Origin: Betaproteobacteria bacterium
GTDB taxonomy: Bacteria > Pseudomonadota > Gammaproteobacteria > Burkholderiales > Usitatibacteraceae
Direction: 5' to 3'
DNA: 64,000 nt
Assembly (NCBI GenBank): GCA_031394355.1
Contig: JANNSU010000023.1
Coordinates: 6,548-70,547 of the forward strand
Positions within the stretch are counted from its first letter, which is position 1. Each line of letters begins with the position of its first letter. The notes beneath the pieces were generated by a model. The model did not search any database, was not told where the DNA came from, and was given only the letters and a program-made list of their open reading frames with translations. Shown here piece after piece: positions 74 to 62,700 of this stretch. A program made the position numbers and the translations under genes.

Positions 74-85
74 GCGAATATTCGC
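74..85. repeat. GCGAATATTCGC palindrome, exact
   Basis: Intergenic, downstream of the ble-like gene. Flanks C/A. Confidence 0.95.
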
Positions 86-166
86 AGATATCCCACCGGG
101 AAAATGCACGAAGTGGGTTCAGACTCCATTCATTGACACGCACGGCCAACACAGGATCCGCCGACG

Positions 167-532
167 CTAGGCGTCCCGCCATTCAAAGAACGTCATCAAA
201 TTCCCGTGCAAGTCCAGCACGTCGAACTCGCGCGATCCCCACGCCGTATCGCGCAGCGGCCCGTTGGGATGCAGGATGCCGTGGGGCTCGAGTTCGTCGA
301 ACAAGGCGTTGATGTTTTCCACCTGCACGCGGCAGCTGGTGTGTTCCGCCATGCGCCGGTCGTTGCAGTGCCAGAAGTGAATCTGAATGGCATCTCGCTG
401 CACGATGCCCCAGCTGCCGGCCTCGACGTGAATCATCTTGAAGCCCATTTTCTCTTCGTAGAAGCGCGCTGAAGCGGGAATGTCCAGCGAGGCCAAGACG
501 GGGACGGCAGTGGTGAGTCTGGCGGCGGACAT
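167..532 (-). CDS. Bleomycin-binding / glyoxalase (VOC superfamily) protein
   Basis: 121-aa ORF. N-terminus LTTAVPVLASLDI and overall size resemble Sh-ble/BLMA-type bleomycin resistance proteins. Confidence 0.7.
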   Translation of the reverse strand: MSAARLTTAVPVLASLDIPASARFYEEKMGFKMIHVEAGSWGIVQRDAIQIHFWHCNDRRMAEHTSCRVQVENINALFDELEPHGILHPNGPLRDTAWGSREFDVLDLHGNLMTFFEWRDA

Positions 533-584
533 AAGGATTCCTGGCGCTCGGGCTTAAGGTATGACGGACGGATGCGGTGAACCT

Positions 585-596
585 GCGAATATTCGC
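585..596. repeat. GCGAATATTCGC palindrome, exact (14-bp form TGCGAATATTCGCA)
   Basis: Intergenic, next to the oxidoreductase 3' remnant. Confidence 0.95.
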
Positions 597-597
597 A

Positions 598-690
598 TGG
601 CGCCGACATTCGGTCACCGGGCGGAGGTCTTCCAGCAAGGTCGGCAGCAGGTCGCTCGCTATCGGATCTGTCGGCAGAAATATTGGGGGA
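598..690 (-). pseudogene. Remnant of the 3' end of a pyridine nucleotide-disulfide oxidoreductase gene (duplicate of 3756..3845)
   Basis: Minus-strand translation ...SDLLPTLLEDLRPVTE matches the C-terminus ...SELLPTLLEDLRPVTD of the gene at 3756..4618. About 85 nt align between 581..690 and 3731..3840, including the adjacent palindrome. There is no upstream coding body. Confidence 0.5.
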
Positions 691-58253: not shown

Positions 58254-58342
58254 GGCGGGCAGTGTAGCGCGTGCGGCGGGCGCCGCGTGCGGTCTGCGCG
58301 CGCTACTGCGCGCACTGACAGCGCAGCAGGTAGCATCACGCC

Positions 58343-59521
58343 ATGGACAGATTCGATGTGATCATCATCGGCGGCGGTTGCATGGGCGTGTGCACCGCCC
58401 ATTTCCTCAAGACGCTGGATGCGAATATTCGCACTGCAGTCGTTGAGCCTGATCCCACGTACGAATTCGCCTCGACGCTGAAGGCCTCCGGCGGCGCACG
58501 GCGACTTTTCTCATGCCCCGAGAACATCGCCATGTCCAACTTCGGCATCGATTTCATGGAGCATTTTGCGGAGCACGTCACGGTAGACGCCGGGCCGGCA
58601 GATATGCCACCCGATCTGCAATGGCGCGCCAACGGCTATCTCTTCATCGTGCCGCCGTCTGGCGTGAACGTCATCGAGGACAACGCCGTGCTGCAACGCG
58701 CGCAGGGCGTGGAAGTCGAGCTGCTGGATCAAGCTGCGCTCAAGCGACGCTATCCGTCCATGCAAGTGAAGGACCTTGGCGGCGCCGCACTGTCGCCGCG
58801 CGATGGCTGGTGCGACCCCAACAGTTTCCTGCAAGGCGTGAAAAAGAAGGCACGGTCTGCGGGCGTTGAATTCATCACGGATCGTGTGGTCGGCATGGTG
58901 CACGACCATGCTGCTGTACGATCCGTGCGTTTGCAAAGCGGGCGTGCGCTTCACGCCGACCATGTCGTCAATGCCGCTGGGGCGTGGGCTGCGGGGATTG
59001 GCGCGATGGCTGGCATGTCGCTCCCCATCACGCCGCTGCCCCGGGACGAGTACTACTTCACCTGCGAAAGCGCCGTCGAGCCGCTGCCGTTCGTGAAGGA
59101 TCTCTCCCGACTCGCGTTCCGACCGGAGGGGTTGGGCTACTCGGGCGGACTGGTAGACGGCAACCGCGCACGTGGCTTCACCTTCGATGTGGACCATGAC
59201 TACTTTGACAAGGTGATGTGGCCCGCACTCGCGCATCGCTTTCCCGCCATGGAGGCGGTGAAACTGCAGAGCGCCTGGTGCGGGTTGTATGAACAGTGCG
59301 AGCTGGATGGCAATCCCATCATCGGCCGGTGGGATGCAGGTCTCGCCAATTTCCATGTGCTCGCGGGCTTCTCCGGCCACGGCCTCATGCATGCGCCGGC
59401 AGCAGGGCGTGCCATCGCCGAGCTCATCGTCAAGGGCGAATATTCGCAGATCGATCTCACGCGACTGGGCTATGCGAGAGTGATCGCCAACGCGCCTTAT
59501 GCTGAGCGGGGGATACTTTGA
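58343..59521 (+). CDS. FAD-dependent oxidoreductase (DAO family)
   Basis: N-terminal [12 protein letters not shown] dinucleotide-binding motif. 392 aa. Contains two palindrome copies (ANIR, EYS). Confidence 0.75.
58421..58432. repeat. GCGAATATTCGC palindrome, exact (14-bp form), inside a CDS
   Basis: In the FAD oxidoreductase CDS, read as A-N-I-R. Confidence 0.95.
59436..59447. repeat. GCGAATATTCGC palindrome, exact, inside a CDS
   Basis: In the FAD oxidoreductase CDS, read as (G)-E-Y-S-(Q). Confidence 0.95.
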
Positions 59522-59540
59522 ATCTTTGCCAAAGCGACAC

Positions 59541-59684
59541 GCAAACACAGATGAACACGGATGAACACAGATGTGTTCCGGGTTCTGCCTTGTCGGTGAA
59601 ATGCATGACCACGTCATGCGGCTATATCGACCCTCACAGCGGGATGCCAGAAATCCGTGTTCATCCGTGTTCATCTGTGTTTGC
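59541..59684. repeat. Repeat family A, copy 2: 144-bp element with ~30-bp inverted repeats
   Basis: GCAAACACAGATGAACACGGATGAACACAG at 59541..59570 versus the reverse complement of 59655..59684 (29/30). Shares the core CAGATGAACRCGGATGAACRCAGA with copy 1. The internal sequence is unrelated. Confidence 0.85.
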
Positions 59685-59702
59685 GTTGGACGTGGTCTTG
59701 CC

Positions 59703-62700
59703 ATGACCAATAAATGGCAATTCTGGATCGACCGCGGCGGCACCTTCACCGACATCGTCGCGCGTTGTCCTGATGGCGGGCTGGTGACGCACAAGCTGCT
59801 CTCCGAGAATCCCGAACACTATCGCGATGCGGCCATTGCAGGCATTCGTCATCTGCTTGATGTCGCGCCGGGCGAACCGATACCCGTCGAGCGCATCGAG
59901 GCGGTGAAAATGGGCACGACGGTTGCCACCAACGCGCTGCTCGAGCGAAAGGGCGAGCCGACCGCGCTCTTCATCACACGCGGCTTTCGTGATGCGCTGC
60001 GCATCGCCTATCAGAACCGCCCGCGAATATTCGCAAGAGAAATCGTGCTGCCCGAGCTGTTGTACCGCGAGGTGGTGGAGGTGGAGGAACGCATCGGCGC
60101 GCAGGGTGAGGTGGTGTTGCCGCTCGATGAGGCACAGCTCGCACAAGAACTATTGCGAATATTCGCATCGGGCATCCGCTCCATCGCCATCGTGTTCATG
60201 CACGGCTATCGCTTCACGGCGCACGAGGCGCACGCTGCGGCGCTGGCACGCGAGGTGGGCTTCACGCAGGTATCGGTATCGCATGAGGTGAGCCCGCTGA
60301 TGAAGCTGGTCGCGCGCGGTGACACCACGGTGGTCGATGCCTATCTCTCGCCCATCCTGCGTCGTTATGTCGACCAGGTGACCACAGAACTTCCCGGCGT
60401 GCCGCTCTACTTCATGCAGTCCAACGGCGGGCTGACCGACGCTGCGCGGTTTCAAGGCAAGGACGCGATCCTTTCCGGCCCGGCAGGCGGCATCGTCGGC
60501 ATGGTGCGCACCGCGAAGGCAGCGGGCGTTGACCGCATCATCGGATTCGATATGGGTGGCACGTCAACCGATGTATCCCACTACGCCGGAGAGCTGGAAC
60601 GCGAGTTCAACACGCTCGTCGCAGGGGTGCGCCTGCGCGCACCGATGCTATCCATCCACACCATCGCGGCGGGTGGCGGCTCCATCCTGCATTTCGACGG
60701 CCAGCGCTATCGCGTGGGGCCGGACTCTGCGGGCGCCAACCCCGGCCCCGCCTGCTATCGGCGTGGTGGGCCGCTCACGGTGACCGACTGCAACGTCATG
60801 TTGGGCCGCATCCAGCCTGCACACTTTCCTGCGGTGTTCGGGCCAAGCGGCGATGCGCCGCTGGATGCCGACATTGTGCGGAGACGTTTCATTGAACTGG
60901 CGGACGAGGTCGGCAAGGTTACAGGCAAGGCGACCACGCCGGAAGCAGTGGCGGAAGGCTTTCTCCGCATCGCAGTCGCCAACATGGCCAACGCCATCAA
61001 GTTTGTCTCGGTGCAGCGCGGGCATGACGTGACCGCCTATACGCTGGCCTGCTTTGGCGGCGCGGGCGGGCAGCATGCTTGCCGCGTGGCCGACGAGCTG
61101 GGCATGACGCGTGTGCACATCCATCCCTTCGCAGGTGTGCTGTCCGCCTACGGCATGGGCTTGGCGGATGTCACGGCGCTGCGCGAGAAAGCGGTGGAGG
61201 TGAAGCTCACGGATGCCGCGCTCGCTGCATTGGCCCGGGAAATCGACGCGCTGGCCGACATCGCGCGAGGCGCGGTGGCGTCGCAGGGTGTGGCGGCCGG
61301 CGATGTGGTGCTGCATCGGCGCGTCCACTTGCGCTATGAGGGCACGGACACTGCGCTCATCGTCCCGCTGGCGGATGTCCTGACGATGCAGCAGGCGTTC
61401 GAGCTGCAGTACCGCCAGCGATTCAGCTTTCTCATGCCGCAGCGCGCCCTCATTGCCGAGGCGGTCTCGGTCGAGGCGGTCGGCAGCATGCGGGGCGGCA
61501 CCGCGCTGCCAGAATTGCCCGTTGATCGTGATGCAGCAACTGCCACACCGGCGTGTACCGACAAGGCGGGCGTGATGATCGAGGGTCAGCAAGTTCCCGT
61601 CCCCGTGTACCGCCGCGAGAATCTCCGCTCTTCGCATTTGCTCACCGGCCCCGCGCTCATCGTCGAGCGCAACGCCACCACTGTGCTGGAGCCAGGCTGG
61701 CAGGCAGCCGTGCTGCCCGCAGGTGATCTCGTGCTCACGCGTGTGCAGGCCGCACAACGCACGGTGGCCGCCGGCACGCGTGCCGACCCCGTGATGCTGG
61801 AAGTGTTCAGCAATCTCTTCATGTCCATTGCGGAGCAGATGGGTCTGCGTCTCGCCAACACCGCATACTCGGTGAACATCAAGGAGCGCCTCGACTTCAG
61901 TTGTGCCCTCTTCAGCGGCAAGGGCGAGCTCATCGCCAACGCGCCGCACATGCCCGTGCACCTCGGCTCCATGGGTGAAAGCATCAAGACTGTCATCCGC
62001 CGCAACGATGGGCGGATGCGTCCCGGCGATGTCTATGTGCTGAACGATCCGTACAACGGCGGCACACACTTGCCGGACGTGACGGTGGTGACACCAGTCT
62101 TTTTGGACGTTGAGAGTTCGGCGTTGGGCGTTGAGCGGGGAAACCTGGGCACGGCAGGTCCAGCGGCCCACGCCGAACGCCCAACGCCGAACGCCCAACC
62201 GCTCTTCTACGTTGCGTCGCGCGGCCACCATGCCGATGTGGGCGGCATCACGCCCGGCTCCATGCCACCCTTCTCGCGGACGCTGCAGGATGAGGGCGTA
62301 CTCATCGACAACGTGAAGTTGGTGTCGCGGGGTGAGTGGCGGGAGGCGGACATGCGTGCGCTGCTCGCGAGCGGTCCGCACCCGGCGCGCAACATCGACC
62401 AGAACCTCGCAGACCTGCGTGCCCAGATCGCCGCCAATGAAAAGGGCGTGCAGGAGCTGAAGCGCATGGTCGCGCAGTACGGGCTGGATGTCGTTGCTGC
62501 CTATATGCAGCATGTGCAGGACAACGCGGAGGAATGCGTCCGCCGCGCCATTGGGGCGCTACAGCTCAGCGAGGGACGGGGCGAATATTCGTACGAGATG
62601 GACAACGGTGCCGTCATTCGCGTCGCCGTGACCGTGGATGCCGACCAACGCTCTGCCGTCATCGACTTCACGGGTACTTCGGCGGAGTTGCCCGACAACT

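Follow-up and report, generated by a model that had tools for sequence, protein, structure and literature searches.

To our knowledge, none of the uptake sequences described so far is palindromic. DNA uptake sequences (DUS) are read by ComP as a monomer, and USS are reportedly spaced more evenly than random. Of USS and DUS, 65% are coding in H. influenzae, compared with 49% for A. pleuropneumoniae and 34.5% for N. meningitidis; the residues at which they fall are poorly conserved, and the choice of USS frame correlates with preferred codons (PMC2817400). For the cyanobacterial word HIP1, conservation goes beyond the codon level (PMC5861425), an increase in transformation has been reported (bioRxiv 10.1101/2024.09.10.611283), and a role as an uptake signal has lately been proposed (bioRxiv 10.64898/2026.06.24.733823).

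The word GCGAATATTCGC, found in a 64-kb stretch of DNA (the window), is a newly recognized counterpart to both DNA uptake sequences and HIP1 and belongs to the same phenomenological class. Full-text literature searches with the 12-mer and its 10-mer core returned unrelated oligonucleotides only; the word is undescribed in the searchable literature, in agreement with an earlier note on this DNA that had not recognized it. The likeness to DUS, USS and HIP1 proposed there was borne out on four counts: the word is tolerated within genes in all three frames, forces amino-acid changes, is conserved above background and is limited to one clade. Unlike known uptake sequences, its full form TGCGAATATTCGCA is a palindrome; unlike USS, its commonest reading frame uses non-preferred codons and its copies are spread along the window no more evenly than chance would give (CV 0.96).

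Recounting gave 26 exact copies between positions 74 and 60166, 11 of them the full 14-mer, the same numbers and places as noted earlier. Near-copies, of which at least six had been reported, comprise five with one mismatch and two with two mismatches. The consensus is sharp, with exact copies far outnumbering those that are one or two bases off (26 vs 5 vs 2). The G+C content of the window is 62.4%, not the approximately 65% first estimated, and the zero-order expectation for the 12-mer is 0.0026, close to the earlier figure of about 0.002. The suggested comparison with Markov expectations was run on the window: models of orders 0–5, trained on background from which the motif had been removed, predict 0.003–0.015 copies per 64 kb, an enrichment of approximately 1,800- to 10,000-fold. 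Dinucleotide-preserving shuffles of the window contained a mean of 0.03 copies and a maximum of 1. AATATT hexamers occur 35 times in the window, 30 of them within GAATATTC and 26 within the full 12-mer.

Genes in the window were mapped by means of a codon model, and the map was checked against Pfam and NCBIfam. On this map 15 exact copies are intergenic and 11 are coding (Table 1), the division originally claimed. Among the 15 intergenic ones, 10 have a predicted stop or start codon no more than 30 nt away, in keeping with the earlier description of their usual position.

Table 1. Exact and one-mismatch copies of the word in the window. Flanking bases are in parentheses; L numbers are loci compared with the window.
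Position	Form	Context	Frame and comparison
74..85	exact 12-mer (C/A)	non-coding; 81 nt past stop of glyoxalase-family gene 167-532(-); near window edge, context uncertain	
585..596	full 14-mer (T/A)	divergent intergenic, 167-532(-) / cupin gene (+)	
3735..3746	full 14-mer, extended to 16-bp palindrome CTGCGAATATTCGCAG	convergent spacer; 9 nt past stop of pyridine-nucleotide oxidoreductase gene 3756-4631(-)	
6095..6106	exact 12-mer (C/A)	intergenic, 65 nt past patatin-like gene stop (6029)	
7857..7868	exact 12-mer (G/A)	coding, Peptidase_S41-like gene 6835/6886-8244(+)	nnG CGA ATA TTC GCA = R-I-F-A
8277..8288	one-mismatch GCGAATATTCAC	intergenic spacer 8245-8307	
10019..10030	full 14-mer	divergent intergenic, DUF4189 gene (-) / TonB_C gene (+)	
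12397..12408	full 14-mer	stop (12388) 8 nt before; thymidine kinase start (12438) 29 nt on	
13125..13136	one-mismatch GCGACTATTCGC	intergenic spacer 13005-13166	
18060..18071	exact 12-mer (C/A)	coding, Peptidase_M28 gene 16930-18645(+)	R-I-F-A
20728..20739	full 14-mer	25 nt past 7TMR-DISM adenylate/guanylate cyclase gene stop (20702)	
21790..21801	exact 12-mer (T/G)	intergenic, 128 nt past stop at 21661; predicted start of a TonB_C gene 29 nt downstream	
24118..24129	exact 12-mer (C/T)	11 nt past alpha/beta-hydrolase gene stop (24106)	
25085..25096	full 14-mer	convergent spacer, 16 nt past stop at 25068	
36851..36862	exact 12-mer (C/A)	coding, beta-lactamase-family gene 36063-37607(+)	R-I-F-A
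37709..37720	full 14-mer	intergenic, PhoD gene ~89 nt downstream	same place in L312 (17829), identity island amid otherwise unalignable DNA
40561..40572	full 14-mer	19 nt past cNMP-binding gene stop; directly upstream of separate terminator-like hairpin (40575-40604)	not present in L312 orthologous spacer
41393..41404	exact 12-mer (G/A)	8 nt past stop of SSF symporter gene 41413-42873(-)	not present in L312
42880..42891	exact 12-mer (G/A)	acetate-CoA ligase/GNAT gene stop (42936) to SSF start (42873)	not present in L312
44595..44606	one-mismatch GCGAATAGTCGC	coding, acetate-CoA ligase/GNAT gene	exact copy at orthologous L312 site (10982)
46328..46339	exact 12-mer	coding, histone-deacetylase-family gene 45602-46537(-)	GCG AAT ATT CGC = A-N-I-R; kept in L312
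48537..48548	exact 12-mer (G/A)	coding, AIM24-family gene 47689-48633(+)	R-I-F-A; kept in L312
50406..50417	full 14-mer	10 nt past stop of small conserved ORF (50150-50395)	
51558..51569	exact 12-mer (T/T)	coding, last codons of ABC permease gene 51554-52333(-), adjoining start of next permease gene	K-R-I-F-A-stop; no aligned L185 counterpart (permease C-termini differ, do not align); no copy at permease junction in L310 and L312
54788..54799	exact 12-mer (T/G)	coding, TANGO2-family gene 54354-55154(-)	nGC GAA TAT TCG C = E-Y-S; kept in L185, not in L310
57890..57901	one-mismatch CCGAATATTCGC	coding, tryptophan 2,3-dioxygenase gene	variant kept unchanged in L186, L187, L310, L311
58421..58432	full 14-mer	coding, FAD oxidoreductase (DAO) gene 58343-59521(+)	A-N-I-R; kept in L186, L187, L310, L311
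59436..59447	exact 12-mer (G/A)	coding, DAO gene	E-Y-S; kept in L186, L187, L311; L310 reads GCGAGTATGGCG
60023..60034	exact 12-mer (C/A)	coding, oxoprolinase gene 59703-63413(+)	R-I-F-A; kept in 5/5 relatives; outgroup GCGGATTTTTGA, encoding R-I-F-D
60155..60166	full 14-mer	coding, oxoprolinase gene	R-I-F-A; kept in 5/5 relatives
62581..62592	one-mismatch GCGAATATTCGT	coding, oxoprolinase gene	variant kept unchanged in L186, L187, L311

Syntenic loci in five other species-level genomes (JAEUMY01, JANRIX01, one JGI contig and two Logan assemblies) were located through their proteins, not through the motif. These loci carry 7–13 copies per 19–24 kb, or 0.37–0.55 per kb, and contigs bearing the word number at least 12 in JAEUMY01 and 4 in JANRIX01. 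Local duplication, which would confine the word to this locus, is ruled out by the presence of the same word at similar density in all five. With the window counted, the six genomes hold 91 copies in 199 kb, approximately one per 2.2 kb, and the copies in relatives are mostly within genes; at this density and placement, the judgement that the word is not a transcription-factor regulon stands. Zero copies were found in the syntenic locus of the nearest sister lineage (L188) and in a further 1.33 Mb from more distant relatives. The word is a genome-wide signal and is confined to a single small clade of Burkholderiales, whose six members sampled here are all uncultured.

Conservation was measured against other 12-mers taken from the same genes. 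Between the window and the other genomes, motif 12-mers were kept in 36 of 50 ordered pairs (72%) vs 9.1% for other 12-mers; among the other genomes, the figures were 144 of 153 pairs (94%) vs 20%. Within codons for identical amino acids, third-position identity was 97.8% inside the motif vs 67.3% outside, and two intergenic copies form identity islands within otherwise diverged spacers. Coding copies bring in two rare codons, CGA and ATA; ATA is the rarest isoleucine codon (3.4%), and 7 of its 29 occurrences in the window lie within the motif. The change from the outgroup RIFD to RIFA at 60023 is a replacement forced by the word, and other replacements at the word are AEMR or ADMR to ANIR, and EYGA vs EYSQ. 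Once formed, copies outlast neighbouring synonymous sites by far, despite these rare codons and replacements. The word is a DNA-level signal maintained by selection or molecular drive, two processes that conservation alone cannot tell apart where the selection is ordinary purifying selection on binding sites.

The sequence at sites lacking the word departs from it at 4–9 positions, and in codon alignments the word stands in place of ancestral sequence of equal length, with no indel. These alignments indicate that copies form by point substitution in existing sequence, both in and outside genes, and not by insertion. Direct repeats abutting the copies, as expected of target-site duplications, were looked for and not found. 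The lack of such duplications, of common flanks and of indels argues against a mobile element, and the original description of a discrete word holds. As far as the data reach, the three refuting outcomes named in the earlier note were looked for and not seen.

The word's perfect 14-bp palindromic form and its A+T core make a symmetric (dimeric) protein that recognizes duplex DNA its probable reader. Our tentative preference is for a function in transformation or self-recognition, as with DUS, USS or HIP1, over a dense binding site for chromosome architecture, which we consider rather unlikely. A methylation or repair target is also a live alternative; a motif regex over approximately 330 kb of ingroup DNA gave no candidate methyltransferase. 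Nothing tied the word to a methyltransferase, a minor pilin or any gene specific to competence, which counts against the transformation reading. The window does encode a PilT/PilU type IVa pilus retraction ATPase, consistent with transformation, although PilT/PilU are common in Burkholderiales and so are weak evidence.

Under the transformation model, the word would mark own-clade DNA in natural transformation, either during uptake or immediately afterwards. Alleles with the word would be preferentially taken up and recombined, a molecular drive that would both create copies and mend decayed ones where coding constraints permit. The nearest-neighbour genome switches from gene to gene along one 23-kb locus, which suggests recombination within the clade.

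The flanks were described earlier as sharing no similarity beyond the adjoining T/A. This is correct in that information is limited to the ±1 positions (A on the 3' side of 22 of the 26 window copies, T on the 5' side of 14) and a weak preference at +2/+3; it fails at 25085 and 50406, where the palindrome is longer by 5–7 further pairs (2 of 26 copies). Extended palindromes also occur in approximately 5% of relatives' copies. The copy at 25085 is the centre of a 26-bp perfect palindrome (25078-25103) with a predicted energy as an RNA hairpin of -24.5 kcal/mol, and that at 50406 sits in a 22-bp palindrome. A minority of intergenic copies, grown into such long hairpins, may also serve as terminators or as structures at mRNA ends. 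L185 (2105) has the arrangement seen at 50406, with arms that differ in sequence and remain complementary; a few intergenic copies are the tip of longer hairpins with covarying arms.

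Exact counting in the window returned 26 copies of the 12-nt palindrome GCGAATATTCGC between positions 74 and 60166, 11 of them in the full 14-nt form TGCGAATATTCGCA, the same numbers that an earlier note had obtained from reading the sequence. That note had also proposed a comparison with a Markov expectation. Run here on the window with models of orders 0 to 5, trained on sequence from which the motif and its one-off variants had been taken out beforehand, this comparison gave 0.003 to 0.015 expected copies per 64 kb, so that the observed number represents an excess of three to four orders of magnitude. 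Dinucleotide-preserving shuffles of the window (n = 100) contained a mean of 0.03 copies and at most one. Inexact copies numbered five with one mismatch and two with two mismatches. The G+C content of the window is 62.4%, and 30 of its 35 AATATT hexamers lay within GAATATTC and 26 within the full word; none of the other palindromes in the window approached the excess of GCGAATATTCGC. Immediately outside the 12-mer, an A followed in 22 of the 26 copies and a T preceded in 14. The spacing of the copies was indistinguishable from random (CV 0.96), and an even spacing is unsupported.

The DNA carrying these copies is ordinary betaproteobacterial chromosome, encoding a napDAGHBC operon, PhoD, an oxoprolinase, an acetate-CoA ligase/GNAT protein, peptidases, transporters, and a PilT/PilU pilus ATPase, and no methyltransferase or recognizable mobile element appeared among the gene and domain matches in the window. 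On a gene map built with our own codon model, which supplied the gene starts, and corrected by domain matches, 15 copies fell between genes and 11 within them, as the earlier note had divided them; nine of the intergenic copies carried the full 14-mer. Seven coding copies read nnG CGA ATA TTC GCA (R-I-F-A), two read GCG AAT ATT CGC (A-N-I-R), and two read nGC GAA TAT TCG C (E-Y-S). The dominant R-I-F-A frame requires the rarest codons of both families, ATA for Ile (3.4% of its codons) and CGA for Arg (6.8%), and codon usage therefore opposes the word; the word accounts for 7 of the 29 ATA codons that the window contains. The same frame explains the asymmetry between flanking A and T, since the 3' flank falls on a free third position and the 5' flank on a constrained second position. 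Flanks of intergenic copies were near-symmetric (13 versus 10), and replication-strand polarity was rejected as the cause of the asymmetry.

The longest motif-free stretch in the window, 11.8 kb, spans an FG-GAP gene, the PilT/PilU gene, and the whole napDAGHBC operon. As a gap it is not significant (P = 0.12). The window NapA is 89-91% identical to proteins of 71% G+C Sphaerotilaceae-like genomes, and the GC3 of the nap genes (0.80-0.82) is somewhat over the window average. The stretch could be a recent acquisition, a gap of this length having P = 0.12.

A genome scan for the 14-mer, which sampled one genome per species, returned many matches from 'Betaproteobacteria bacterium new MAG-159' (JAEUMY01) and 'Burkholderiales bacterium bins.516' (JANRIX01); among the matches listed, every remaining genome had a single match at chance level. 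Loci for comparison were picked through protein similarity, independently of the motif. NapA was tried as an anchor and given up in favor of the oxoprolinase: the closest relatives that could be retrieved with it (89% amino-acid identity, 71% G+C, Piscinibacter-like) come from organisms not closely related to that of the window, and their loci had no copies. The nearest homologues of the window oxoprolinase formed a tier at 78-80% amino-acid identity consisting of JAEUMY01, JANRIX01, one JGI metagenome contig, and two Logan assemblies. The five relatives' loci syntenic with window positions 50-64 kb held 11, 12, 13, 10, and 12 exact copies per 22-24 kb, and a further locus on one Logan contig, syntenic with 37-55 kb, held 7 copies in 18.9 kb. 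Pooled over six species-level genomes, 91 copies were present in 199 kb, or about 1 per 2.2 kb. The mean density of about 0.46 copies per kb over the sampled loci extrapolates to about 1,500-2,300 copies per genome, a total on the order of 10^3 and far above what composition would give. About three quarters of the pooled copies lie inside genes, in all three frames, and in the five relatives the share exceeds 85%.

Zero copies were found in a sister-lineage locus of the same synteny (L188; 73% oxoprolinase identity). An over-represented word of its own was looked for in L188 and none was present, so a sister-clade 'dialect' was rejected for that locus. A metagenome oxoprolinase scan gave only relatives at 71% identity or less, which were used as a negative control and not for orthologous sites. 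No copy occurred in the 1.33 Mb that surrounds oxoprolinase genes of 57-71% identity, nor in two NapA relatives. Since the word is present in six genomes and absent from L188 and from these 1.33 Mb, it is, among the genomes and loci sampled, the property of one narrow, uncultured Burkholderiales clade whose nearest named relatives by oxoprolinase similarity are Usitatibacter MAGs (about 71%). Local duplication, which the earlier note had named as an outcome that would count against the word, does not agree with its recurrence in five other genomes or with its presence on 12 or more JAEUMY01 contigs.

The word is a DNA-level signal that is made and kept against both codon preference and protein sequence, and it has persisted through the divergence of the clade while being absent from the sister lineage. 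In codon alignments of 21 orthologous genes, third-position identity between genomes was 0.53-0.67, which indicates deep divergence. The motif 12-mer was nonetheless exact in the partner genome in 36 of 50 ordered pairs with the window and in 144 of 153 among the other five genomes, counts that describe persistence and not the number of origins, since orthologous sites shared by several genomes do not represent separate events. For the remaining 12-mers aligned in these genes, the corresponding proportions were 9.1% and 20%. Where codons of two genomes specified the same amino acid, their third positions agreed in 97.8% of cases within the motif and in 67.3% elsewhere, and codon or amino-acid conservation does not explain the conservation of the word (72-94% versus 9-20% for control words). 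The same pattern is known for HIP1 (PMC5861425). One-mismatch variants altered only at the outermost base were kept as such in four or five genomes. Sites at which a genome lacks the word differ from it by 4-9 nt and not by 1-2, so intermediate states must be short-lived, and the absence of indels at aligned motif sites indicates that the word is written by substitution.

Coding copies stand in several frames at poorly conserved residues and alter the encoded peptide. At one site the outgroup has GCGGATTTTTGA (R-I-F-D) where the ingroup has GCGAATATTCGC (R-I-F-A), a change to rare codons. At another, the outgroup GCGGAAATGCGT (A-E-M-R) and the window GCGGACATGCGT (A-D-M-R) contrast with A-N-I-R in five genomes, and at a third the relative's locus L310 has GCGAGTATGGCG (E-Y-G-A) against E-Y-S-Q. 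A TANGO2-family gene shows a lineage-specific gain of R-I-F-A in its variable part. Intergenic copies behave similarly, with faster turnover: the copy upstream of phoD forms a 17-nt island of identity in an otherwise unalignable spacer, three genomes share a copy that lies between two LacI-type operators, and three of five comparable intergenic window copies are missing from L312, the Logan-contig locus.

Several of these sites have further features, whose coordinates are collected in the table below. The TANGO2-family gene is unusually motif-rich, 628 bp of it containing as many as four exact copies, and since its set of copies varies by genome it is a hotspot of gain and loss. In the divergent LacI-TctC promoter region, the palindromic LacI-type operators ATGAAAACGTTATCAT and ATGACAACGTTGTCAT are well conserved, and the motif between them is kept amid variable sequence. 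Pairs of motifs 23-24 bp apart, center to center, are present independently in the TANGO2 and oxoprolinase coding sequences and persist between genomes; they could reflect cooperative binding or chance.

Coordinates of features discussed in the text
Feature	Location	Description
Small ORF 1	window 50150-50395	small hydrophobic protein; ends 10 nt before motif hairpin
Small ORF 2	window 50447-50854	would overlap convergent permease gene by ~100 nt
Terminator-like hairpin	window 40575-40604	strong; 13-bp stem then CTTTTGG; between convergent cNMP-binding and GST genes
PilT/PilU ATPase gene	window 26181-27542	TIGR01420, 453 bits
Longest motif-free stretch	window 25097-36850	
Motif pairs	L185 6779/6803, 10445/10468; L187 460/484, 10433/10456; L310 5493/5517; L186 and L311 10433/10456	
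TANGO2-family gene	L187 1-628; L185 6162-6947; L310 4876-5661; L312 551-1333	
Divergent LacI-TctC promoter region	L186 1530-1840; L187 1651-1963; L311 1488-1788	
REP-like array	L121 7787-8291	unrelated metagenome locus; nine 56-bp tandem units around TTGGATTAGCGCAGCGTAATCCAA
Hairpin family	L172 4833-15845	unrelated metagenome locus; GGCGATAAATCGCCTACTACAAAC hairpins, including 27-bp tandem copies

Explanations at the RNA level, by a regulon, or by mobile elements are largely excluded. The word might act in RNA as a short hairpin (a terminator, an mRNA-end stabilizer, or an RNase site) formed from either strand, a reading to which about 10 of the 15 intergenic window copies lend themselves by lying 3' of a stop codon, seven of them at 8-25 nt. 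The palindrome is lengthened by 5-8 pairs at window copies 25085 and 50406 and at a few relatives' sites, and three unbiased copies form the tips of such hairpins (-15 to -24.5 kcal/mol). Copy 50406 lies 10 nt 3' of a small conserved ORF overlooked by simple gene calling, and in its JAEUMY01 orthologue (locus L185) the arm sequence is different, still complementary, and followed by TTTT, a case of compensatory change between species. Against this, the fold of the 14-mer by itself is worth only -4.7 kcal/mol, arm extension is absent from 40 of 62 unbiased copies, extended arms occur in only about 5% of copies, most copies are genic and occupy all three frames, and no Rfam family matched across the window. 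At copy 40561 the terminator-like hairpin begins 3 nt past the word, which adjoins it and is not part of it. Given the weak fold and the few extended copies, the hairpin is a secondary elaboration of a minority and not the explanation of the word, and we consider action in RNA very improbable. Slightly less probable still is an ordinary transcription factor that controls a very large regulon. Some copies do stand in divergent promoter regions (585 and 10019 in the window; 1658 in the relative's locus L186), and the palindrome TGCGA-N4-TCGCA presumably resembles CRP/FNR-type sites; however, genic copies make up 11 of 26 in the window and the great majority in the five relatives, convergent genes flank several of the intergenic copies (25085, 40561), the distance to start codons is inconsistent, and 1 copy per 2.2 kb is too dense for such a reading. 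The misfit with a regulon that the earlier note had pointed out holds on these grounds, and its view of a discrete word independent of mobile elements holds as well. Remnants or miniatures of mobile elements (REP/RAYT, an NTS/Ssn-type repeat, a MITE, or a transposon footprint), or else local duplication, codon bias, or an assembly artefact, would accommodate a palindromic word and the longer inverted arms of a few copies. Yet no direct repeats abut the 12-mer or 14-mer as target-site duplications would, and pooled flanks share only an A at +1 (60-67%), a slight preference for A at +2, and its avoidance at +3. Aligned word sites substitute at equal length without indels, six independent assemblies share their in-frame sites, and the codons used are rare. 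REP/BIME (RAYT) and NTS/SRM (Ssn) families are likewise abundant palindromic repeats, and NTS modulates transformation, but they are imperfect hairpins of 20-50 nt with oriented flanks, nearly all extragenic and often clustered; the NTS repeat is 28 nt with only 2% of copies in genes (PMC11893778). The REP-like arrays at two unrelated metagenome loci also differ from the word, with units of 25-56 nt in tandem intergenic clusters. A bare, mostly genic 12-14-mer has none of the hallmarks of these families, an imperfect hairpin of at least 20 nt, oriented flanks, extragenic placement, and an inserted unit. On present data a mobile or artefactual origin is refuted, and we hold it to be the least credible of all.

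Three readings carry more weight, of which we tentatively favor a signal for transformation or self-recognition, based on the density and exactness precedent of DUS/USS and HIP1 together with the recombination pattern of the clade. Biased uptake followed by recombination would be the only understood process that gives words so long, so exact, and so dense in both genes and spacers, as in DUS/USS (PMC2817400). Along the single 23-kb syntenic locus represented by L185-L187, L310, and L311, the nearest-neighbor genome shifts from gene to gene: the closest pair is L185-L186 for hemF and purD (0.93-0.95; 0.947 for hemF), L186-L187 for the oxoprolinase gene, and L186-L311 for the HD gene. These shifts suggest homologous recombination among species of the clade. 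From the 14-bp dyad symmetry, the reader would be a symmetric one acting on duplex DNA. Caveats to the uptake reading are that known signals are non-palindromic, that the spacing is irregular, and that the frame choice runs against preferred codons; the PilT/PilU gene is the sole competence-linked item seen, and such genes are common. The main rival, which we regard as unlikely, is a high-density binding site of an abundant, sequence-specific chromosomal protein acting in nucleoid organization, segregation, or occlusion, in the manner of SlmA, MatP, Noc, or ParB but genome-wide, with purifying selection for binding. A perfect 12-14 bp palindrome with an A+T center is the typical form of a dimeric helix-turn-helix site, and GTGAGTACTCAC (SBS), GTGACRNYGTCAC (matS), and ATTTCCCGGGAAAT (NBS) are palindromes of dimeric proteins. 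These sites and parS are 12-16 bp long, a form that the word fits, are often inside genes, and are conserved across species. Strong conservation of the word in coding and non-coding DNA alike also argues for this reading, as do the conserved outermost-base variants, which graded affinity predicts, and the 23-24 bp pairs at two independent loci. However, known organizers have 10-100 sites per genome, regionally restricted and often tied to one macrodomain, whereas the word has a density of about 0.46 per kb at all loci sampled from six genomes, is spread over many contigs of a single MAG, and extrapolates to more than 1,000 sites. Selected binding sites are also normally degenerate, while the consensus here is unusually sharp, with non-sites 4-9 nt away, and no candidate protein was found. 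Density and sharpness are in this respect unlike the known examples. An improbable third reading is a methylation or repair word of the HIP1 type, in which an orphan methyltransferase or mismatch/very-short-patch repair reads part of the word (GAATATTC or AATATT) and biased repair regenerates the whole independently of uptake. In its favor, HIP1 includes the sites of two orphan methyltransferases (PMC4390886), the word is near HIP1 in form, with the same outer half-sites (GCGA...TCGC) and ATAT at the center, its conservation statistics are like those of HIP1 (PMC5861425), and nearly all AATATT in the window is inside it. Methyltransferases and Vsr-type enzymes, however, read 4-8 bp and alone cannot specify 12-14 bp or an enrichment above 1,000-fold. 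The earlier note had advised searching the genome for a methyltransferase of this specificity. That search was carried out in part, with a crude regular expression on 774 ORF segments from about 330 kb of ingroup loci (well under 10% of any one genome), and none was seen there.

Among the known hyper-abundant words, DUS (Neisseriaceae; ATGCCGTCTGAA and its dialects, which the minor pilin ComP recognizes) and USS (Pasteurellaceae; AAGTGCGGT core) are likewise exact words, of 9-12 bp, at about 1 per 1-2 kb and hundreds- to thousands-fold over expectation. They too occur between genes and in all frames within genes, impose amino-acid changes at poorly conserved positions, are common to related species and missing from neighboring lineages in a 'dialect'-like fashion, and form hairpins from some intergenic copies 3' of genes. 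In contrast to the word described here, which is itself a perfect palindrome, they are asymmetric and form hairpins, including terminators, only as inverted pairs. The present word also differs in a preferred frame made of rare codons, in a window spacing no more even than random, and in its host, an uncultured member of the Burkholderiales outside both families. HIP1 (GCGATCGC, cyanobacteria) shares with it a palindrome hyper-abundant in coding and non-coding DNA, a between-genome conservation beyond codon and amino-acid effects that extends to one-mismatch variants, and the use of non-preferred codons. The outer half-sites are identical, such that the present word amounts to GCGA|TCGC with a central ATAT inserted; only these half-sites coincide with GCGATCGC (or GGGATCCC). 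HIP1 differs in being 8 bp long with GATC/CGATCG methylation sites, against 12-14 bp and an ATAT core; in being phylum-wide, against a narrow betaproteobacterial clade; and in its higher density of up to about 1 per 0.35-1 kb, against about 1 per 2.2 kb. HIP1 was recently shown to make transformation more efficient (bioRxiv 10.1101/2024.09.10.611283), and there is a proposal that it serves as an uptake signal (bioRxiv 10.64898/2026.06.24.733823). The word is neither HIP1 nor a DUS/USS dialect.

Full-text literature queried with the 12-mer and its 10-mer core returned only unrelated oligonucleotides or the Shewanella motif TGGCgaAtaTtcGCCA, a different word, in keeping with the earlier note, which did not recognize the word as a described element. 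We classify it as an undescribed form of a known class of genome feature, the hyper-abundant word. To our knowledge such short words are rare, and only DUS/USS and HIP1 are well studied. For 30 years the function of HIP1 was contested, and its link with transformation is a recent finding. We are evenly divided on whether the word represents the independent origin of a genome-wide 'self-marking' system, with a putative dedicated dimeric reader unrelated to ComP/DUS or the HIP1 methyltransferases, a 14-bp palindrome, and more than 1,000 sites per chromosome. If it does, it would be the first palindromic signal for uptake or transformation beyond Neisseriaceae, Pasteurellaceae, and cyanobacteria, or else mark a new, strictly sequence-specific nucleoid protein. 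A third independent case would serve as a natural replicate for how such words arise, by drive or by selection, and for what reads them. Because the clade boundary is sharp (six species with the word, the sister without), phylogenetic profiling for the reader gene would be straightforward given whole genomes, and a palindromic 14-mer is long enough for a clean pull-down or DAP-seq. The word also accounts for local anomalies in codon use and amino acids in the genes of the clade, and it is a near-perfect metagenome marker for binning and for assigning plasmids and phages to the clade.

Some minor observations were made at other loci. Simple gene calling had overlooked both small ORFs next to copy 50406, which are kept in JAEUMY01; amino-acid identity is 48%, and over 174 nt the nucleotide identity is 74%. 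In a Piscinibacter-like relative (L103 20710-22550), a ribonucleotide reductase large-subunit gene had faint intein/LAGLIDADG matches, which are unrelated to the word. Among the first 120 viral-contig matches listed for the word, almost all were single chance matches. One contig, IMGVR_UViG_3300022666_000335 (retrieved as L199, L231, and L263; 46.8 kb, 56-58% G+C), carries three full 14-mers, a density of about 1 per 15 kb that is far over chance and under that of the host, and may be a phage or prophage of the motif-bearing clade or of a relative.
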